Source of the DNA: Oligoflexales bacterium
GTDB lineage: Bacteria > Bdellovibrionota_B > Oligoflexia > Oligoflexales > CAIYRB01
Assembly (NCBI GenBank): GCA_041736175.1
Contig: JBGSUI010000045.1
Span: forward strand, 1 to 10,674
DNA: 10,674 nt
Reading direction: 5' to 3'
Of this stretch, positions 661 to 10,655 are shown in pieces (positions within the stretch are counted from its first letter, which is position 1; the number at the start of each line of letters is the position of its first letter). A program made the translations under genes and the position numbers. The notes under the pieces are model-generated. The model did not search any database. It was not told the origin of the DNA and saw only the letters and a program-made list of their open reading frames with translations.

Positions 661-960
661 ATCGAAGGTTCCTGAAACGAGATCTTTGATCGGTTTTGTG
701 GGAGCTTAAAGCAGTTCATTTTGAGTCCTTCGGTTGCATGTATTTATTGTAGGAAGTAAATCCTTGAGAAACCACAGGGCATGCCGTGAGCAGAGGTTAT
801 GCAATAGACAGGCCAACCATGGCGAACAATCGATGCCAATGGTTGTTGCTTGGATTTTCTATATTGATTTATGCGAGTAAGCCCAAGGTCTGGCGGACGG
901 AATCTCCTCAAAAGTCCGATGGTCAAAGCGTTTGCGAGTGTACAATCAATGTACTAATGT

Positions 961-1012
961 GGCCATTGGCCTTGAGTCTGTGTTGAGACAAGGTTAAGAA
1001 CCAAAGAACCTA
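961..1012. repeat. 52-bp repeat, copy 1 (ggccattggccttgagtctgtgttgagacaaggttaaga[a/t]ccaaagaaccta)
   Basis: Matches 3800-3851 at 51 of 52 positions in direct orientation. It contains the GGCCATTGGCC dyad and an imperfect CCTTG...CAAGG inverted repeat. It lies about 280 bp upstream of the SPFH gene. Confidence 0.9.
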
Positions 1013-1045
1013 CTTTTTCTTCCTCCCCACGCCAGGTACGGCCAC

Positions 1046-1112
1046 GTGGTCTCAAGGTCATCTGGAGTGTGGACAATCGATATTTAACCATCTCTTTGAT
1101 AAGTTTCCGAGG
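1046..1112. repeat. 67-bp repeat, copy 1 (gtggtc.caaggtc.tctggagtgtggacaatcgatatttaaccat.tctttgataagtttccg.gg)
   Basis: Matches 8308-8374 at 63 of 67 positions in direct orientation. It sits 33 bp downstream of 52-bp repeat copy 1. The hypothetical ORFs that cover the two copies are on different strands and frames, so conservation is at the nucleotide level and not protein-coding. Confidence 0.85.
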
Positions 1113-1280
1113 TGGGGAGCTTCGGCTATTGCCATCATAGCTCCTTAGGTTTACATGTAACAACCAATAATTGCTTTTTAATTTGCATCTCCTTGCTTTT
1201 GACGAGTCTTTTTCCTCAAAAGATGCTCTGTAAAACCCGACACCTTTATGTCTGCCAACCTTGGCAGAGCAGATTTCACC

Positions 1281-1286
1281 AGGAGG
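1281..1286 (+). promoter_or_regulatory. Shine-Dalgarno AGGAGG for the SPFH gene
   Basis: AGGAGG lies 7 nt upstream of the ATG at 1294. The TTG at 1261 used by the ORF track is probably not the real start. Confidence 0.6.
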
Positions 1287-1293
1287 ATTAAAA

Positions 1294-2343
1294 ATGTCTA
1301 TCGTTCAATCTCTAAAAAACCAACTCCGCTCCGTCATCGAGTGGGAGGGGTTTGACAGCAGCGCGGTACTTTGGCAATGGACCATCAACGGTGACGAAAT
1401 TAAAAACGCATCAAAACTTTTGGTAAAACCTGGTCAGGGCTGTTTTTTCCTCCACGAAGGAAAAGTTGAGGCTATCCTAACTGACTCTGGAACCTACACA
1501 CTTAAGACTGCAAATATTCCGTTTTGGACCACCGTATCAAAATTTATGCAGGCCTTTGAAAGCGAGCATAAGGTGGGAATCTACTTTTTTCGCAGCGGTC
1601 CCCTCGTCGATCAGAAATGGGGCACCACAAATCCCATCAAATACTTTGATGCCAAATACGAGCAATCTGTGATGCTTAAAGCCTTTGGAACCTATACCGT
1701 CCAAGTGTTGGAGCCAAAGTCTTTTTTAGAGTTTGTGGCGTCGGCACCGTCGTTTTCGGGGGAGCAGCTCAGGAGTGCTTTATTTTCGCGGCTGGAACAG
1801 TCTATCAAAGACAGCATTGCCGAGTGCCAGTTTGGCTTTGACGAGATTGATTCTAAACTTAACGAGATTAGCGCAAAAACCCGAGACCACCTAAATAACG
1901 ATGTGGCAAACTTAGGGTTTAAAATCACGGATTTCAGGATTAACGGTACGACCTTTGACGAACAGACCACAAAAAATATCCAAGAGATCTCTCGGGCCGC
2001 AGCCGAGGCCATGGCCGCCAAAAAACGAGGTCTCACCTACGCCCAGCAGGCACAGATCGATACGATGAAAATTGCGGCGGCAAACGAGGGGGGAGGGCTG
2101 GCCGCGACGGGAGCTCAGTTGGCTGCTGGTGTTGGGATGGGCCAAATGATGGCTGGAGCCATGGCTGCCAACCTGGCAGCATCCACACCACCCCAAGCGG
2201 TACAAACCCAGGTAAGCCAAAGTCCGCACGACGCAAACGAGCCGGTAAAGCGCCTTAAAAAACTCAAAGACTTGTTTGACGCCGGCTTGATCGATGCCCA
2301 GGAATTTGAGTCTAAGAAGAAGGAGATACTAGCAGATATTTAA
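1294..2343 (+). CDS. SPFH/Band-7 family protein (Band_7_1, YdjI-like) with a C-terminal SHOCT-type motif
   Basis: The N-terminus, MSIVQSLKNQLRSVIEWEGFDSSAVLWQWT, matches the characteristic start of YdjI/Band_7_1 SPFH proteins. A central coiled, Ala/Gly-rich linker follows. The C-terminal KRLKKLKDLFDAGLIDAQEFESKKKEILADI is a typical SHOCT bihelical motif. The start has a strong RBS. Confidence 0.85.
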   Translation: MSIVQSLKNQLRSVIEWEGFDSSAVLWQWTINGDEIKNASKLLVKPGQGCFFLHEGKVEAILTDSGTYTLKTANIPFWTTVSKFMQAFESEHKVGIYFFRSGPLVDQKWGTTNPIKYFDAKYEQSVMLKAFGTYTVQVLEPKSFLEFVASAPSFSGEQLRSALFSRLEQSIKDSIAECQFGFDEIDSKLNEISAKTRDHLNNDVANLGFKITDFRINGTTFDEQTTKNIQEISRAAAEAMAAKKRGLTYAQQAQIDTMKIAAANEGGGLAATGAQLAAGVGMGQMMAGAMAANLAASTPPQAVQTQVSQSPHDANEPVKRLKKLKDLFDAGLIDAQEFESKKKEILADI

Positions 2344-2382
2344 AGCGAGTTTACAATATGGTTCGGGTTTATAAAGGAAGGT

Positions 2383-3525
2383 ATGGCTATGGGTATGCGT
2401 GTAAAAAAACAACTAATCTATGAATTCTGGGACTGTCCCCAGTGCGGTGCTCAAGGCATCCTAGGGTCAGCAGAATCCTGTCCCCATTGCTCAAAGCCTC
2501 GAAACCAAAGCATCAAATTTTATCGGAAAAGCGACCAAGAGATCTTGGTCGAGCAAGAAAAGCTCAGCAGACACAGTGGAGGAGCTGACTGGATTTGTGA
2601 ATACTGTGATGGACTCAACGCCGCGATGTTGACCCACTGTGGTTCGTGTACCGCCGAAAAATCTGCAAATGCCAAGACCGTTGTTGACCCAGGGCCTAAA
2701 GACATTCCCCCTCCTAAAGTCGAAGCATTATCTAAAGGTCCGCCCACTAAAAGCCGACGGCGGTTGATTCTTGGTCTGGTGGTGGCATCAATCGCTGCTC
2801 TCTTATACTGGTCTATGGCTGCGGAAAAAAACACCTATAGGGTGGACCAAGTCTCCTGGAGTCGCAAAATAATCGTGGAGCGTTACGTGCGGGAGTTCCG
2901 AGAATCATGGGAAGATGAACAGACCGGTGACGACATATCGCTTCTCACCAAGAAATCTAAGGTCAGGTCCTACAAGGATGTTCTCGACCACTATAAGACC
3001 GAGACCTATTCCGAAGAGGAATCCTATCAGTCAGGTAGTCGCGAAAAATGCTCTACCGAGTATAAATCCACGGGCAATGGTGCTGCAGAAAAAATCACTG
3101 CTTGCCACGACGAGCCGGTTTATGCAACAAGGCAGATCACAAAAACCAGAGAGGTTCCCGTCTATAGAAAAGAGCCAGTTTATGCAAACTGGGTTCGGTA
3201 CCAATCAAGCTTTTATAAAGACCATCAGGTCTTTGAAAGCTCCGGGACAAACAATGCTCCCCAATGGCCTAAAACTAAATTAGGAACGGGGGTCTCGCAA
3301 AGACCCGACCGGGAAGGTGCGCGGGACGGTCTTTATCGAGTGACGTTAAGGAGAATGTCTCCCAGTAAAAAAGCGCCTCCTTCCGTCACGATCACGACGA
3401 TAGAAAAGCGATTTGTCGATCACTATGAGATCGGCAAAGAGATCGCTGTGGACTATCAAAATGTGGGCGGTCTGCAGTGGCCCGAGGGCGACAAGGAGGA
3501 ATCAAGCTCTACTGACAAACCTTGA
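2383..3525 (+). CDS. Double zinc-ribbon single-pass membrane protein (YdjG-like partner of SPFH/Psp modules)
   Basis: Two CxxC...CxxC zinc-ribbon units (CPQC..CPHC and CEYC..CGSC) lie at the N-terminus. One hydrophobic transmembrane helix follows (RRRLILGLVVASIAALLYWSMAA). The C-terminal domain of about 230 aa has repeated EPVY/VPVY motifs. The gene begins 40 bp after the SPFH gene with no terminator between them. The start could be the ATG at 2383, 2389 or 2395; the RBS AGGAAGG at 2373-2379 favours 2389 or 2395. Confidence 0.8.
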   Translation: MAMGMRVKKQLIYEFWDCPQCGAQGILGSAESCPHCSKPRNQSIKFYRKSDQEILVEQEKLSRHSGGADWICEYCDGLNAAMLTHCGSCTAEKSANAKTVVDPGPKDIPPPKVEALSKGPPTKSRRRLILGLVVASIAALLYWSMAAEKNTYRVDQVSWSRKIIVERYVREFRESWEDEQTGDDISLLTKKSKVRSYKDVLDHYKTETYSEEESYQSGSREKCSTEYKSTGNGAAEKITACHDEPVYATRQITKTREVPVYRKEPVYANWVRYQSSFYKDHQVFESSGTNNAPQWPKTKLGTGVSQRPDREGARDGLYRVTLRRMSPSKKAPPSVTITTIEKRFVDHYEIGKEIAVDYQNVGGLQWPEGDKEESSSTDKP

Positions 3526-3799
3526 GGTTGCTCTTGGATTTTTGAACGATCCAAAAGGGCTGTGAGTTCTGGAACCTCAGGTGGAAGAGCCGGAGTAAAA
3601 TCTTGGGCTTTGAGGGCGGTACCTGCCAAGATGATTCCTAGAAAAACAAAGGGATTTTAGAGTGACCAAGGTCCATTGAGAGTATCATCATGATAATAAA
3701 GATTAAAATCGAGTAAGTAGGGGTTTGGATAAATCCTCTATGTCGGCCTCTGGACGGGGCGGGGTCAAGACACTTTTAGCACGTCTTTGTATCCGGTGC

Positions 3800-3851
3800 G
3801 GCCATTGGCCTTGAGTCTGTGTTGAGACAAGGTTAAGATCCAAAGAACCTA
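3800..3851. repeat. 52-bp repeat, copy 2
   Basis: Matches 961-1012 at 51 of 52 positions. It lies about 70 bp upstream of the GTG start of the oppD-like gene. Confidence 0.9.
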
Positions 3852-3922
3852 GAGGGGAATCCCTAACAAGAGACTATCTCAACCTTCGAGACATCCGGGC
3901 CTCAAGAAAGGCAAAGCCACCT

Positions 3923-4981
3923 GTGACTGACCCCCTGCTTAAAGTCGACCAATTGGTCACATCCTTTAAAGTCGAAGCCGGAGTGCTCCGGGCAGTCGAT
4001 AAAGTCAGCTTTAGTATCAACCGGGGTGAGACGGTCGGGCTTGTGGGCGAATCAGGCTGCGGTAAGAGTGTCACCTCCCTGTCTATTTTAAGACTGATCG
4101 CCTCACCTCCAGGACTGATTGAGTCGGGTAAGATCCTCTTTGATGGCCAGGATCTCGCCCAGCTCTCCGAAGAAGAGATGCGAAAGCTGCGGGGAAACCG
4201 CATCTCGATGATCTTTCAAGAGCCCATGACGAGTCTTAATCCGGTGTTTACCATCGGTGACCAGATCGGCGAGGTCTTTAGGATCCACCAAAAATCATCC
4301 CGCGCCGAGGCTCGTAAAAAAGCCATCGAGATGCTCCACTTGGTCAAAATCCCTGCTCCCGAGGCACGGGTTGATGAATACCCCCACCAACTCTCCGGCG
4401 GCATGAGGCAGCGGATTATGATCGCCATGGCTTTAGCCTGTCGCCCCCAGCTGTTGATTGCAGACGAGCCCACGACCGCCCTTGATGTGACGATCCAAGC
4501 ACAGATTCTCGACCTGATCGAAAGCCTGCAAAAAGAACTCAATATGGCGGTCCTCCTGATCACCCACGACCTGGGTGTGGTGGCTGAGGTTTGCGACAAG
4601 GTTGTGGTGATGTATGCAGGTAAGGTAGTCGAACAGGGGACGGTGCACCAACTCTTTACCAATCCCCAGCACCCCTACACCCAAGGGCTGCTTCGCTCTA
4701 TCCCTAAGCTCGGCCATAAGTCCGAGTATCTGCCGACGATCGAAGGAACAGTTCCCAGTTTAGGAAATCTACCTCAAGGCTGCCGCTTTCAAACCCGATG
4801 CTCCCAGGTTTTTGACCGGTGTCGGACCGTGGAGCCTCCTTTGGTCCCTGTCCCTACGGGGTCAGGACCAACCCGCGACCTCGATGATTTAGGTTTAGGC
4901 CATGCCAGTGCCTGTTACCTGGTCCAAGGCGCAAGTGGACCCCATATCGACGGGAGGCCTGGTCATGACTCCACTCCTTGA
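3923..4981 (+). CDS. oppD: Oligopeptide/dipeptide-type ABC transporter ATP-binding protein (OppD/DppD-like)
   Basis: Walker [12 protein letters not shown] signature LSGGMRQR and Walker [13 protein letters not shown] are present, as is the oligopeptide-ABC C-terminal region ([17 protein letters not shown]). The gene uses a GTG start with an AAAGG RBS. Its 3' end overlaps the next gene by 17 nt. Confidence 0.9.
4952..4957 (+). promoter_or_regulatory. Shine-Dalgarno GGGAGG for the oppF-like gene
   Basis: GGGAGG lies 7 nt upstream of the ATG at 4965. This supports the internal start over the ATG at 4902. Confidence 0.55.
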
Positions 4982-5951
4982 AGTCCGCAACCTCATAAAA
5001 TACTTTCCTATCAAAGGGGGAGTTTTTGGCAGAGTCGTTGCCAAAGTCCATGCGGTGGACGGTGTCAGTCTGTCTATGCTGCCAGGCCAAACCTTAGGTC
5101 TCGTGGGTGAGTCGGGCTGCGGCAAGTCCACCTTAGGCCGGGCGATCCTTCGGCTGCACGAACCCTCCTCTGGCCACATTCAATTTGATGGTTGCGATCT
5201 CCTTTCGCTGACGACCAGCGAACTCCGTGCAAAACGTCGGGATATGCAGATTATATTTCAAGACCCCTTTTCCTCCCTCAATCCGCGGATGACCGTGGGA
5301 TCTATCCTCGCGGAGCCCTTTTTGATCCATAGGCTATGTTCAAAAAAGGAAACCACCCAACGAGTTAAGGAGCTATTAGAGACAGTTGGACTGCCTCCCG
5401 AGGCGGATAGCCGCTATCCCCACGAGTTTTCCGGTGGCCAACGGCAGCGTATTGGGATCGCCCGGGCGATTGCCCTTAGACCTAAGCTGATCGTTGCGGA
5501 CGAACCCGTCAGTGCTCTCGATGTTTCGATCCAATCCCAGATCCTTAATCTGCTGGTAGATCTCCGTAAAAAACTCCAGCTCACCTATCTTTTTGTGGCC
5601 CATGATCTCGCGGTCATCGAACACATCAGCGATTTTGTCGCCGTGATGTATCTGGGAAAGATTGTCGAATACGCCTCAAGCGAACAGCTTTACTTGAAGC
5701 CTTCGCACCCCTATACCAGAGCCTTGATCAGTGCCATTCCCGTCCCTAAAGTCAGCCTTCCAGGGACTCCTAAAAGACAGCGGCAGATCCTGATCGGCGA
5801 TGTGCCTAGCCCAATTAATCCACCTTCGGGATGTTATTTTCATCCCCGGTGTCCCCTGGCGACCGACAAGTGTAAGCAAGAGGCTCCGGCCCAACGCAAT
5901 ATCAGCGGCGCGGGCAAACCGCCCCATTTGGTTGCTTGTCATTATGCATAA
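4965..5951 (+). CDS. oppF: Oligopeptide/dipeptide-type ABC transporter ATP-binding protein (OppF/DppF-like)
   Basis: The N-terminus [19 protein letters not shown] is typical of OppF/DppF. Walker [10 protein letters not shown], signature FSGGQRQR and Walker [13 protein letters not shown] are present, with a C-terminal [12 protein letters not shown] motif and a CxxxRC..C tail. It is translationally coupled to the neighbouring genes at both ends. Confidence 0.9.
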
Positions 5952-7035
5952 CGTCCACCCTAGGCCAGACAAAACCCTGATCTGTCTCACAGGAGGCGGC
6001 ACGGCGGGGCATGTCACGCCTCATTTTGCATGGACGCCTTTTTTTGACAAACAAGGCTGGGATTATATCTATATCGGATCTCAGGGTTTAGAAAAATCCC
6101 TTGTGGAAGCCCAAAAGATCCCTTTCTATACCATCGCTGCGGGTAAACTCCGCCGCTATGCCTCCTGGCAAAACTTTACGGATCTCTTTAAAGTGGTCGG
6201 GGGGTTTTTCCAGGCATTTCGAATTTTAGGCCAAACCCGACCCAGCCTTATCCTGAGCAAAGGGGGATTTGTGGCGGTGCCGGTTGCTGTGGCAGGCTGG
6301 TTGCGGAAGATCCCGGTGATCTCCCACGAATCAGATGTATCCCCAGGACTCGCCAATCGGATCATCGCCCGGTTTGCCCACAAGATCCTCTACGCTTTTC
6401 CCGAGACAGCCCAATATATCAGCGGCGATAAAGGGGTATATGTGGGCGCACCGGTACGGGCTGACCTGGCCCTTGGGGACAAAAACCGAGCTGTCGCCCT
6501 GTGTGGATTCCAAGATTTTGACCCTAGCCTGCCGACGCTTTTGGTGATGGGCGGAAGCCAAGGGGCCCAGCGTATCAACGATGCTCTTAAGATCATATTA
6601 CCAACTCTTACCCAGTCTATGCAGGTGATTCACCTGACGGGCAAAGGCAAGACGATAGGCTTTCAGCATCCTCGCTATAAAGCTTTTGAGTTTGTGTCCC
6701 AAGAGTTTAAAGACCTCCTCGCCCTGTCGACCCATGTGGTTAGCCGTGCGGGGTCTAACTCCATCTTCGAACTCTTAGAGCTCCATAAGCCGATGCTTTT
6801 GATCCCTCTTGAGCTTGGAAGCAGGGGCGACCAAATCCTCAACGCCAACTCCTTTGCCCGCCAAGGCTGGTGTTTGACCTTAAGGGACAAGGATCTATCG
6901 GAGACGTCGCTCCTCGCTGCTATTAAACAGCTGATCGACCAGGGTCCACAGCTGGTCCTCAAACACCAATCCCGGCCCACCAGTCATACCTGTGATAGGG
7001 TAGTGGACGAGATCAAATCCACTCTTAAGATCTAG
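5944..7035 (+). CDS. murG: MurG-type GT28 glycosyltransferase (UDP-GlcNAc:undecaprenyl-PP-MurNAc-pentapeptide GlcNAc transferase)
   Basis: The N-terminal G-loop [15 protein letters not shown], the HESD motif, GAPVR, GGSQGAQ and SRAGS all align with conserved MurG motifs (GGTGGHVFP, HEQN, GNPVR, GGSQGA, SRAGA). The start ATG at 5944 sits in the sequence ATGCATAA, which overlaps the oppF stop codon. The longer form starting at 5800 in the ORF track is an upstream extension. Confidence 0.8.
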
Positions 7036-7169
7036 CCAACTCAGTGGGGATCAGGCCTGCCCAACTTCTCTAAAAGTGGCACCTGAATCTTCGCTTGTAA
7101 AGCATCTGAGTAAGGACCTGTCAATAAATAACTTGGACACTTTCTAATTAAATAGTCTATAGTCCAAGA

Positions 7170-8156
7170 ATGCTATCAGAACAATCAAAAAACCTAGATC
7201 GAATCCCAGATGTCATCGCCCTACTTGAAGAGATTGTAGATCCTACGAGCCGCGGCGATCCAGAATCTCCGCTTCGCTGGACTTGCAAGAGTGTCCGAAA
7301 TATAACGGAGTCTTTGAACATTAAAGGATATGCAATCAGCCGACAAACTGTAGCAAATATTCTCCATGAACTAGACTATAGTTTGCAAACAAACAGAAAA
7401 ACATCTGAAGGTAAGAAGGATCACCCAGATCGAGACCAGCAATTTCGTTTCATCATTAGTAAGGCAAAAGCCTTCCTAAATAAGTCTCTGACGGTTATTT
7501 CCGTTGACCCAAAGAAGAAGGAACTGATCGGCAAATATAAAAACGCGGGCCATGAATGGGAAAAAAAGGCATGTCAGTCAAAGTGCTAAGTCATGATTTT
7601 CCTGATCCTGATAAACCAAAAGCAGTTTCTTATGGCGTATATGACATTGGGGGAAATCTTGGGTGGGTCAAGATCGGCATCTCGGCGGACACTACTGAAT
7701 TCGCTGTTGAGAGTATCAAACAATGATGGAATTTAATGGGTAGAAAACGATACACGATGGCTCGAGAAATATATATTTGCGCGGACAGCGGAGGTAGCAA
7801 CGGCTACCGAATTCACCTTTGGAAATATGAACTACAAAAGTTTTGTGATACTCAAAATATTACCATCACCGTCTCATTATCTTCCGGGTACAAGTAAATG
7901 GAACAAGATAGAGCAACGTCTGTTTTCATATATCACCATGAATTGGTGTGGGCGGCCACTCACGGATTACAGAACTGTCGTTGATCTAATTGCAGCAACT
8001 ACCACTAAGATGGAGTTGATCGTCAAGGCACGTCTCGATAATAAAAAGTACAAAAGAGGCATTAAGGTTTCTGCCAGCGAAATGGCAAAATTAAATATCT
8101 TTCGCAGTACATTTCACGGTGAATGGAATTACACCATTTCACCTCGAAGTGTCTAA
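7170..8156 (+). pseudogene. Decayed ISAzo13-family (Rhodopirellula-type DDE) transposase relic, 5'-truncated and frameshifted
   Basis: Three successive reading frames carry family-typical segments. The first is ESPLRWTCKS..RQTVANILHELDYSLQTNRKT..HPDRDQQFRFI (7170-7589). The second is SYGVYDIGGNLGWVKIGISADTTEFAVESIKQ*W (7571 to about 7877), with a TGA at 7724-7726 where the family has a conserved Trp. The third is CADSGGSNGYRIHLWKYELQ.../HYLPGTSKWNKIEQRLFS...FHGEWNY (to 8156). This gives at least two frameshifts and one nonsense codon, and the N-terminal 70-100 aa of the family are absent. Confidence 0.7.
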
Positions 8157-8307
8157 GTTATTTCTTGAAAGGTCCTTAGCTTTTGCTGTACTCGCCTTGC
8201 CGGACACAATGGATTCCGTCAAGATCAAGCCAGCTTTTCTTTTTTTACCTTTCCTGGGGATATGGGTTTATGATCGGTGGGTTTGGAAACCTTGTCGGAC
8301 TTTTGGG

Positions 8308-8374
8308 GTGGTCGCAAGGTCTTCTGGAGTGTGGACAATCGATATTTAACCATGTCTTTGATAAGTTTCCGGGG
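8308..8374. repeat. 67-bp repeat, copy 2
   Basis: Matches 1046-1112 at 63 of 67 positions. It lies about 150 bp after the 3' end of the ISAzo13 relic. Confidence 0.85.
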
Positions 8375-8818
8375 GATAGGTTTGTTCAAGGGACACTGAA
8401 TTGACCCTTTGGCAAATTTGTATTCGCCCCTAGTCGGTCCCCGAGAGCCTCAATAACAGCAAGAGAGGGGTAAAAGCCCACGTGTTTGGAATAACCAGCC
8501 ATCATGATTTTTTGGTCTCGCTTCCCGCCATGGACTAGGGCAAAAGATGGAATCTTGTAATTCATTTAAAACTTTCTGATTGAAGTTGGGTAAGGAGTTT
8601 GGAATTGAAAATCCTGCTGTGGCCTGTGAAACGCAACTTGAGAAGGGTGATTGCTTGATTAGGTCTCTAAGAAAAGAGTTGGATGGTTGATGCCTTTTTC
8701 CATTGGCCTTCTTAGGGAGGTCCTTAGGTTGGAATCACGAGTCGATCCGGCTGCCCAGAAACTGACCATCATTTGTCCACGAAACATTTCGACTTGTTAT
8801 AACTTACCGTGACATAGG

Positions 8819-9290: not shown

Positions 9291-10655
9291 CTACGGAACT
9301 ACGCAGCGCACCACAGTGGCGCTCTCAGAGCCGCTGAAGCTAGCCCCGGTTCCCGCCCACATCCAGTAATGATTAGAATAGTAAGTGCTGGCCGAAGACG
9401 TTCTGGTATTACTCATGCCCACAGACGGTACACCAGTGGTCGAGGATGACCAGCTAGGCGAGGCTGGGTCCGCAGGTTTGTTATCCACTGGATCGTTGGC
9501 AGTCGTCTCGTATAGGAGCGGCAGCCGCATTCCCTTATTGGCACAGGTTTGGATATTACCTTCATACCACGATGCACTATAGCTGGCACCACCGGCGGTT
9601 GTGTTCCAGAACCCTAAACGGTAGGCTCCTGCTGTGGTCTGATTGGTGTTGCCGTCATGGGCGGTGGCATCCAGACGCTGGCTTGGGTTTCCTTGATCGT
9701 AATATACACAACGCCCGGTCGCTACTCTATTGCCGTCATCGACATACACGTTTACAGGACAGACGCGACCACCAAGATTGGCCACGGTCCTATCGAGATT
9801 TGTGGCGCTAAAAGAGCGACCATTGGCGTTAAGCTTCAAATGCCAATTATCGGAACCATTTACCCGCAGCACGTTATTGCCGTCGGCCTGTACCCATATC
9901 CCCGAGGTAAGGACAAGAAGCTTGCCGCTTCCTGTATATGCCATGCCCGAATTCAAGGCAGCACTGGTCTGGTAGCAATCCACGCCGCAAAGCTCTGGTT
10001 TATCCCGGCTAGTGGTCCCTATCAACGATGTCTGGTACCAGGCAATACCATTGGAGACTAGCTGGACCAGAGCATTGGTTTGCAGAGTTATGGGCGCCTG
10101 AACCCCATCGATCTGGTCCGTGCCAGAGGGGAGGACTGTTGCCCAGAGCCCTGCACCTTTTACTGTGAGTAGATATCCCGCACCGGCACTTGCTGCAGTA
10201 GGGAGGGTCAGGGTGGTCCGGTTCCCTGTCACGATAAAATATTTGCCGCTGTCTCCAGCTGTCAGAGTATAGTCAGAGCTTTTCGTAGAAACACCCACAC
10301 TACCTCCACTAGCAGCCCAAGATAAGGATCCCGATCCATCCGTCACTAGTGCCTGGCCACTTGTCCCATCTGCGGCAGGGAGGGTCCAGATTTTATTGGT
10401 GGTGACAGAAGCAGGAGCCTTAAAACCTACATAGTGGCTATCGTCGTTATCCCCAAATCTAAGATCCGTAGCAGCTGTACCAGTTCCTGCCACCCGGATA
10501 TTGCCAGTGCTTGAGAGCTGGCCAGATGTGGCCACCACAGTGGAGCCCCCGATGGTCCCCGAGGTGATGGCAGAGCCAGAGACTTTGCCCGCAGTGCTAA
10601 TGGTGTCCAGTTTAGTATCAGCGATGGCGGCTGAGGCGTTGATATCCGTGTCCAT
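9291..10655 (-). CDS. Fibre/adhesin-like protein: phage-tail-fibre-like Gly/Thr/Ser-rich N-terminal region plus a DUF1566/Lcl-like lectin-type C-terminal domain. The 5' end may lie beyond the window.
   Basis: 454-aa ORF. The N-terminus ADTKLDTISTAGKVSGSAITSGTIGGSTVVATSG...LRFGDNDDSHYVGFKAPASVTTNKIWTLPAADGTSGQALVTDGSGSLSWA is a motif seen in tail-fibre or Bdellovibrio-type surface fibre proteins. The C-terminus CANKGMRLP...SWSSSTTG...VVRCVVP fits the DUF1566 pattern (C..G.WRLP..EL, YWSST, vRCVR). The reading frame remains open upstream of the ATG at 10655 all the way to the window edge, so the true start may be further 5'. Confidence 0.8.
   Translation of the reverse strand: MDTDINASAAIADTKLDTISTAGKVSGSAITSGTIGGSTVVATSGQLSSTGNIRVAGTGTAATDLRFGDNDDSHYVGFKAPASVTTNKIWTLPAADGTSGQALVTDGSGSLSWAASGGSVGVSTKSSDYTLTAGDSGKYFIVTGNRTTLTLPTAASAGAGYLLTVKGAGLWATVLPSGTDQIDGVQAPITLQTNALVQLVSNGIAWYQTSLIGTTSRDKPELCGVDCYQTSAALNSGMAYTGSGKLLVLTSGIWVQADGNNVLRVNGSDNWHLKLNANGRSFSATNLDRTVANLGGRVCPVNVYVDDGNRVATGRCVYYDQGNPSQRLDATAHDGNTNQTTAGAYRLGFWNTTAGGASYSASWYEGNIQTCANKGMRLPLLYETTANDPVDNKPADPASPSWSSSTTGVPSVGMSNTRTSSASTYYSNHYWMWAGTGASFSGSESATVVRCVVP

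Follow-up and report, generated by a model that had tools for sequence, protein, structure and literature searches.

Sigma-70 housekeeping promoters accompanied by an operator dyad combine two hexamers set apart by the optimal 17 nt and lie 60-100 nt ahead of an operon's first gene. Between orthologues the hexamers stay conserved, whereas spacer and flanks drift. One copy (R2) of a direct repeat in the window, a stretch of 10,674 bp that constitutes one entire contig, has the same layout and the same pattern of conservation. It differs in that its hexamers are moderate matches to the consensus, the sigma-factor preferences of the host lineage are assumed, and its start and activity are predicted. 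Small dispersed repeats can also bear promoters, for example the Correia elements of Neisseria; REP elements and MITEs are further repeats of this kind. Like these, the repeat is short, non-coding and nearly identical between copies, and it precedes more than one operon. However, two copies are known, terminal inverted repeats and a target-site duplication are absent, and one of the copies has conserved orthologues at its own locus in diverged relatives.

The other copy (R1) resembles short ectopic duplications, templated patches and collapsed segmental duplications. R1 (55 nt) and a second patch (D1a, 67 nt) adjoin one another. Their sources are found on the same contig at a distance of 4.46 kb, the patches being collinear with them in order and orientation, and divergence from the sources is similarly low (2/55 for R1, 4/67 for D1a). 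In contrast to such patches, the 33-nt filler between them could not be traced to a source, and the junctions of R1 and D1a showed no microhomology. Attachment sites, target-site duplications and attC sites are likewise direct repeats that flank a small gene set, but here the bracketed segment carries no recombinase gene, its flank homology falls on the wrong side, and the attC cores are unmatched. An integron attC site was rejected by eye, neither RYYYAAC nor GTTRRRY being matched. The phenomenon is of an ordinary kind.

The first-pass annotation had described a 52-nt direct repeat at 961-1012 and 3800-3851, with a single A/T difference. The description is correct: both copies are on the plus strand, the A/T position is 1000 versus 3839, and without gaps the match extends to 958-1012 and 3797-3851, with two mismatches in 55 nt. 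Self-BLAST of the window gives an E-value of 3e-20 for R1 against R2, while 200 dinucleotide-preserving shuffles produced no match to the 52-mer, even with three mismatches allowed. The window contains exactly two copies, and by chance none is expected. The distances given earlier are also accurate, with 281 nt from the end of R1 to the SPFH ATG (1294) and 71 nt from the end of R2 to the oppD GTG (3923), and both internal dyads named there are present. As reported, the 2.8-kb bracketed segment comprises the SPFH-SHOCT gene and the Cys-rich membrane gene, with no other genes. A second dispersed repeat inside this segment had been overlooked: positions 1046-1112 are a 67-nt, 94% copy of 8308-8374. 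The features are collected in Table 1.

Table 1. Features of the repeat-bearing locus, by position in the window
Feature	Position	Strand	Remarks
R1	958..1012	+	Derived ectopic copy of the predicted promoter block; -35 at 972-977, -10 at 995-1000 (TAAGAA); 53/55 identical to R2
33-nt spacer between ectopic patches	1013..1045	.	Not significantly similar to the sequence that follows R2 or precedes 8308
D1a	1046..1112	-	Ectopic, 67 nt, 94% identical to its source in a decayed minus-strand ORF (3' part); copy-specific variant joined to the SPFH gene in L001
SPFH (Band_7_1) protein with C-terminal SHOCT domain	1294..2343	+	Pfam Band_7_1 6.9e-38, SHOCT 7.3e-08
Cys-rich (CxxC x4) membrane protein, SPFH partner	2389..3525	+	Sub-threshold zinc-ribbon matches only; adjoins the SPFH gene in L002 and L003
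Conserved upstream motif TTTTAGCACGTC	3774..3785	+	Outside the repeat; L085 and L004 have TTTTAnCACGTC at an identical offset; no duplicate beside R1
R2	3797..3851	+	Ancestral repeat copy; conserved predicted promoter block of oppD-oppF-murG, about -50 to +5; orthologous to blocks upstream of oppD in L085, L004, L086/L087 and L088
Dyad GGCCATTGGCC	3800..3810	+	Directly upstream of the -35 box; possible regulator site
Predicted -35 hexamer TTGAGT	3811..3816	+	Identical in L085 and L004; TTGATG in L086 and L088
Predicted -10 hexamer TAAGAT	3834..3839	+	TAAGAT in L085; TAGGAT in L004, L086 and L088; last T invariant in all orthologues
oppD 5' leader (predicted)	3852..3922	+	Ends with AAAGG ribosome-binding site; no Rfam match; fold z-score +1.0
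oppD (3923-4981), oppF (about 4965-5951), murG-like GT28 (about 5944-7035)	3923..7035	+	Pfam; overlapping ends; one operon, predicted to be served by R2
D1b	8308..8374	-	Source copy of D1a, in frame inside a frameshifted ORF (about 8226-8565); frame runs on past the repeat on both sides

The genes on either side of R2 have separate sets of relatives. Homologues of the SPFH protein occur in L002 (80% identical) and L003 (70%), each followed by the same partner gene. L002 carries the pair in a different genomic context, without the repeat, and its homology with the window is confined to the coding sequences (1281-3510). PADLOC models matched neither the SPFH protein nor its partner, nor three other proteins of the window. 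The gene order oppD-oppF-murG is also found in L088 and L089.

R2 is ancestral at oppD and is kept there by purifying selection. Five distinct oppD upstream regions, those of the window, L085, L004, L086 and L088, share TTGA(G/T)(T/G), 17 nt, and TA(A/G)GAT, and the sequence around these hexamers diverges between clades (L087 is identical in sequence to L086 and was counted with it as one region). All four distinct relatives possessing an intergenic region before oppD have this layout; L089 and L090 (OppD about 76%) were left out, their oppD lying 24-38 nt after another gene with no promoter region to compare. The pattern TTGANN-N17-TANGAT, derived post hoc from these same sequences, occurs 11 times on the two strands of 1.38 Mb of compared loci. 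Five of these occurrences are oppD upstream sites (four distinct sequences), and the window has one. In L085, the first 44 nt of R2 are matched at 43 positions (98%), compared with 62% at third codon positions of oppD, and R2 is therefore both ancestral and under purifying selection. Against L004 the values are about 75% for R2 and 46% for oppD third codon positions.

The flanks of the two copies also differ in their affinities. To the right of R2, alignment of the window with the L085 sequence before oppD is strong (score 88), and the leader is 84% identical over 75 nt, compared with 62% at oppD third codon positions and 56% for the 50 nt upstream of R2. To its left, about 50 nt align weakly with the relatives, the firm part being the 12-nt motif TTTTAnCACGTC at the same offset. 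R1 has flanks that bear no relation to the regions before oppD, the left one aligning only at chance level. The gene preceding oppD varies among the relatives, from an AAA ATPase fragment (L085) to a 425-aa orphan (L004) and a Na/H exchanger (L086, L088), and the SPFH/zinc-ribbon pair lies next to oppD in none of those with the promoter layout.

Judged by its conservation, R2 is almost certainly an ordinary promoter, that of oppD-oppF-murG, retained in evolution. Its -35- and -10-like hexamers keep within the 16-18 nt separation of sigma-70-type promoters, the spacer being 17 nt in the window and in every orthologue, and both hexamers and spacing are kept upstream of the same gene. The hexamers match 8 of 12 consensus positions (4/6 each against TTGACA and TATAAT), and the predicted -10 box, about 84 nt before the oppD GTG, has A at position 2 and T at position 6. 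A promoter and terminator consensus scan with a threshold of 9/12 listed nothing in or near the repeat, the R2 site scoring 8/12. The dyad reads GCCATTGGC in L085 and CCCATAGGG in L004, where one arm pair is altered on both sides, and is absent at the orthologous place in L086 and L088. From this conservation we infer promoter activity and a transcription start. Because the leader downstream of R2 is conserved as well, R2 may serve a regulatory role besides, or instead of, that of a promoter.

The state of R1 is derived. Its only internal change is an A at 1000 in place of the T found in R2; because all orthologues have T at this position, the A is the derived base. The dyad and the -35 box are unaltered. 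The last base is the most critical one of the -10 box in sigma-70 promoters, and because this key T has been lost, R1 is most likely a weak or dead pseudo-promoter. R1 sits in a patchwork spacer, 33 nt from D1a. When the intervening 33 nt were aligned with the sequences flanking R2 and D1b, no score exceeded those of shuffles, and a homologue search with the 180-aa protein of the gene at 118-660, which sought a relative predating the patch, found none, leaving this protein an orphan. On the preferred reading, R1 is a stray duplicate of recent origin whose -10 box is damaged, and not the edge of a mobile cassette.

A history that accounts for both copies can be proposed, with a probability of about two thirds for the overall explanation that the R2 promoter block is ancestral and R1 a recent ectopic pseudo-promoter copy. 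R2 (3797-3851) would be the core promoter of oppD-oppF-murG, whose short upstream dyad is a possible regulator-binding site; the predicted start near 3846 gives a leader of about 77 nt. R1 (958-1012) would be a recent ectopic copy of the promoter block alone, inserted into the long and decayed stretch that precedes the SPFH gene. One event probably brought in both R1 and the 67-nt duplicate of 8308-8374, after which R1 would have lost the last T of its -10 box. Two routes are conceivable. A 4.6-kb segment may have been duplicated and later collapsed through internal deletion, or a repair or template-switch event may have copied two short stretches. The order and orientation of the two patches fit templated patching and duplication followed by deletion alike. 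A single-event origin of R1 and D1a is unproven because the 33-nt spacer matches neither source flank.

Several other explanations account for parts of these observations. In the first-pass annotation, a shared cis-regulatory element or a 5'-UTR RNA motif was a candidate. The regulatory proposal survives for the oppD-side copy, as a conserved promoter block, and fails as an RNA motif. Its extension to the SPFH pair is doubtful because of the T-to-A change at the last -10 base and the 287 nt between R1 and the SPFH ATG. As a functional shared promoter or operator, R1 would drive the SPFH/zinc-ribbon genes, or co-regulate them with oppD-oppF-murG, through the same regulator at the GGCCATTGGCC dyad. 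Both copies do face a plus-strand operon, the duplicated stretch matches the promoter block in full, dyad through about +5, with dyad and -35 box intact in R1, and 1113-1293 contains no convincing alternative promoter. Against this, R1 reads TAAGAA where all orthologous promoters have T in the last position, an antisense pseudogene patch lies between R1 and the distant SPFH ATG, and the SPFH upstream regions of L002 and L003 are without such an element, all of which makes shared control unlikely. Still less should be expected of a portable promoter-operator module that is copied to new sites and places the SPFH/zinc-ribbon membrane-stress pair under oppDF-murG control, or of repeats between which homologous recombination could remove and restore the 2.8-kb SPFH segment; if true, the latter would create population heterogeneity. 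Membership in a dispersed family of small repeats (REP, MITE or Correia-like, possibly promoter-bearing), with the oppD copy as an old insertion, is improbable too. Two near-identical copies lie within 2.8 kb, a second short dispersed repeat adjoins one of them, and the contig has a decayed insertion sequence. Yet the ends of the repeat, GGCCATTGG... and ...AGAACCTA, are not inverted copies, the flanks differ on both sides of both copies, and both copies lie upstream of operons and not, as expected of REP, at 3' ends. Unlike a neutral repeat, the oppD copy is orthologous and selectively conserved despite saturated third codon positions, and the conserved positions are exactly the -35 and -10 hexamers. 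The MITE/REP option of the earlier annotation thus gained no positive evidence, with no terminal inverted repeats, no target-site duplication and no match in three public collections. An exact scan of genome_contigs and metagenome_contigs with the 24-mer core gave 0 matches, as did a scan of metagenome_contigs and viral_contigs with a degenerate 26-mer, and megablast of the whole window against plasmid records found no match. The degenerate 26-mer does match L085, a JGI contig whose sample evidently lies outside the scanned set.

The repeats had also been read as a duplicated target or attachment sequence left by insertion of an SPFH/zinc-ribbon cassette upstream of oppD. Direct repeats do bracket the two-gene unit, which stands in a different context in L002, and relatives are without the pair beside oppD. 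A target duplication, however, predicts a match to the left flank of R1. In the empty-site comparison, what lies to the left of the promoter in L085 and L004 resembles the window left of R2, inside the segment, and not the outer flank of R1; the alignment is weak and centres on the 12-nt motif. Integrase, recombinase and transposase genes are all absent from the segment, which holds only the SPFH and Cys-rich membrane genes. It begins with a pseudogene patch and not a cassette end, and homology with L002 ends at the coding sequences. A cassette origin is accordingly very improbable, and a near-identical non-coding repeat around genes need not mark a mobile cassette. More improbable again is that the junction 1-957/R1/spacer/D1a is a metagenome assembly artefact at short repeats. 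This junction is seen in a single NCBI contig only, and an independent Logan contig (L001), equivalent to window positions 1062-3838, stops inside both repeats. However, L001 joins the D1a-specific variant to the SPFH gene, and metagenome assemblers normally use large k-mers that exceed repeats of 55 and 67 nt in length. L001 breaks exactly before the repeat variant positions; at the 52-nt repeat it ends just before the A/T variant. For each repeat, both variants are therefore present in the reads.

A structured RNA or 5'-UTR motif was rejected, with stems that are not conserved in L004, unremarkable fold z-scores, and a position mostly upstream of the predicted start. The z-scores span -2.0 to -0.7 in L085 and the two copies of the window; L004 is without the hairpin (z +0.8). 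Folding of both strands of both copies and the orthologues revealed no significant or conserved structure, and with three alignable orthologues a covariation test has little power. Rfam gave 0 matches anywhere in the window with E allowed up to 1, and a tRNA scan of the window found nothing.

Under the preferred reading of an ancestral R2 and a stray R1, a likely promoter and leader are located for an unusual oppD-oppF-murG operon in a poorly sampled lineage, with little import beyond annotation. R1, if active, would be a small natural example of regulatory rewiring via promoter duplication; its derived -10 defect speaks against this. In OppD, the nearest named relatives are metagenome-assembled genomes that carry the labels Proteobacteria, Bdellovibrio and Oligoflexia. 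The ORF around D1b weakly resembles DUF1801 (Pfam E 0.034, below the cut-off), and the decayed transposase, of the ISAzo13 type, lies 3.3 kb away from the repeat-bracketed segment with inverted repeats of its own.

The 52-nt direct repeat R reported in the first-pass annotation is real. Its copies lie on the plus strand at 961-1012 and 3800-3851, differ only at an A/T position (1000 versus 3839), and stand at the previously reported distances from the SPFH ATG (1294) and the oppD GTG (3923). Gap-free extension gives 958-1012 (R1, SPFH side) and 3797-3851 (R2, oppD side), identical at 53 of 55 positions (self-BLAST E-value 3e-20), and none of 200 dinucleotide-preserving shuffles matched the 52-mer with three mismatches permitted. 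The window is the complete 10,674-bp contig of an NCBI metagenome-assembled genome, and an independent Logan assembly (run SRR28170473) holds a contig identical to positions 1062-3838. That contig ends immediately ahead of R's variant base; thus both variants are present in the reads, and R is not a consensus artefact.

Features of the window
Feature	Coordinates	Strand	Remarks
Orphan ORF, 180 aa	118-660	minus	
Spacer, 633 nt	between the 118-660 ORF and the SPFH gene		
SPFH(Band_7_1)-SHOCT gene	1294-2343		
Cys-rich membrane gene	2389-3525		
oppD	3923-4981		followed by oppF and a murG-like GT28 gene, ends overlapping
ISAzo13-type insertion sequence	7111-8178		frameshifted/decayed; imperfect inverted ends of ~49 nt, starting TAAGGACC
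Decayed ORF	~8226-8565	minus	weakly DUF1801-like (E 0.034, below cut-off)

Orthologous loci were fetched via OppD homologues. OppD is 97% identical across its first 300 residues in a JGI contig (L085), 92% identical in a Logan contig (L004), and ~78-80% identical in L086, L087, and L088. In all five, the intergenic region before oppD contains a counterpart of R2. Both clades retain TTGA.., exactly 17 nt, and (A)GGTTA(A/G)GAT, a pattern that reads as -35 and -10 hexamers at optimal spacing, 40-100 nt upstream of the homologous start codon. The motif TTGANN-N17-TANGAT, defined post hoc from these same sequences, is rare: it occurs 11 times on both strands of the 1.38 Mb of collected loci, with five of the occurrences at these oppD sites. 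The window has it once.

Predicted oppD promoter elements in the window and its relatives
Locus	Upstream 11 nt	-35	17-nt spacer	-10
Window R2	GGCCATTGGCC	TTGAGT	ctgtgttgagacaaggt	TAAGAT
L085	TGCCATTGGCC	TTGAGT	ctgtcttgagacaaggt	TAAGAT
L004	TCCCATAGGGC	TTGAGT	ctctctttagaggagga	TAGGAT
L086	CACCTATTCGC	TTGATG	ccccatctggagaaggt	TAGGAT
L088	CACCTATTCGC	TTGATG	acccatggggagaaggt	TAGGAT

Against L085, R2 is identical at 43 of its first 44 nt and the predicted oppD leader at 84%, compared with 56% for the 50 nt upstream of R2 and 62% for oppD third codon positions. Against L004, R2 is ~75% identical and third codon positions, which are saturated, 46%. As R2 identity exceeds third-position identity in both comparisons, R2 is under purifying selection. 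On this sequence evidence, R2 is the ancestral copy, conserved at oppD, and the simplest reading is that it is the ordinary promoter of oppD-oppF-murG; transcription is predicted to begin near 3846, giving a leader of ~77 nt. A promoter consensus scan with a cut-off of 9 of 12 positions passed over R2, which matches 8. At L004 2638 and L086 6001, the automatic gene calls place the OppD start 7-14 nt past the predicted -10 box, probably too far upstream; the counterpart of the window GTG is found 40-98 nt past that box. In addition, the window, L085, and L004 share a conserved TTTTAnCACGTC (3774-3785 in the window), equally spaced from the predicted oppD promoter in each. It falls outside the duplicated block, amid sequence that otherwise does not align, and may be a regulator site.

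R1, as judged from its sequence, is the derived copy. Internally it departs from R2 only at 1000, with A in place of the T seen in R2 and every orthologue; this position closes the -10 hexamer and is its most critical base in sigma-70 promoters. At 960, the mismatch either is likewise derived or falls outside the duplicated stretch. A second dispersed repeat, overlooked in the first-pass annotation, begins 33 nt right of R1: D1a (1046-1112) is a 67-nt, 94% copy of D1b (8308-8374). D1b is in frame within the frameshifted, weakly DUF1801-like minus-strand ORF, and D1a is an isolated fragment. Divergence (2/55 for R1 versus R2, 4/67 for D1a versus D1b) is far below the neutral divergence between the window and L085, so both patches are recent. 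R1 is a recent ectopic copy of the predicted promoter, and probably an inert one, in a patchwork spacer. Because R1 and D1a are adjacent and keep the order and orientation of their sources, 4.46 kb apart, a single event is suggested. A duplicated 3797-8374 segment could later have collapsed by losing its interior, or two short stretches could have been copied during repair or template switching. Neither source's flank matches the 33-nt filler between R1 and D1a, and the single-event step can therefore only be inferred.

Among the loci compared, the SPFH pair adjoins the oppD promoter in the window alone; the relatives carry an AAA ATPase fragment (L085), a 425-aa orphan (L004), or a Na/H exchanger (L086, L088). 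By itself this would allow the earlier proposal that R is target or attachment sequence duplicated around an inserted cassette. Had an insertion duplicated its target, the stretch just left of the promoter in the relatives should resemble the left flank of R1. Instead, the relatives share TTTTAnCACGTC with the left side of R2, inside the supposed cassette, and the R1 flanks show only chance similarity to their oppD upstream regions. The left-flank alignment of R2 is weak overall (local score 19), the right flank against L085 strong (score 88). Pfam searches found no recombinase between R1 and R2. In L002, which shares its sample with L004, an M50 peptidase gene and another gene flank the SPFH/partner pair, which is 80% identical to the window pair in amino acids and 69% in nucleotides; homology is limited to window 1281-3510, and R-like sequence is absent from the locus. 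Flank homology on the R2 side, the missing recombinase, and a pair without R leave the cassette proposal unsupported.

A MITE/REP-type repeat had also been considered; it is unlikely and has no supporting evidence: R has no terminal inverted repeats or target-site duplication, and exact or degenerate searches of public collections with its core gave no match. The suggestion of a shared cis-regulatory element or 5'-UTR RNA motif holds as far as a cis-regulatory element is concerned; shared control is probably absent. An RNA motif is rejected: Rfam returned nothing at E up to 1, and a hairpin across -35 to -10, for which folding the window copies and L085 gave z-scores of -2.0 to -0.7, does not form in L004 (z +0.8).

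Elsewhere in the window, the ISAzo13-type element lies between murG and the decayed ORF, its DDE_Tnp_ISAZ013 transposase broken into two or more ORFs (7170-7589, 7827-8156). A search of 5.8 billion proteins returned no homologue of the 180-aa ORF. A 454-aa Gly/Ser/Thr-rich protein (9291-10655, minus strand) forms a single-member 90%-identity cluster by exact look-up and has no match in Pfam or PADLOC.

At each of its loci (window 1294-3525, L002 2477-4733, L003 145-1710), the SPFH(Band_7_1)-SHOCT gene precedes the gene of a single-pass, Cys-rich membrane protein with four CxxC motifs and no Pfam family above threshold. The pair recalls ydjG/ydjH/ydjI (samGHI) of Bacillus subtilis, a module whose zinc-ribbon membrane protein recruits YdjI, itself an SPFH protein (PMC8581546; bioRxiv 10.64898/2026.02.06.704340). 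In the neighbouring operon, the Opp/Dpp-type ABC ATPases OppD and OppF are encoded with a murG-like GT28 glycosyltransferase (window 3923-7035, L088 1404-4683, L089 2740-5805). The fetched stretches contain no permease or substrate-binding genes, and the arrangement recurs among relatives down to ~76% OppD identity.
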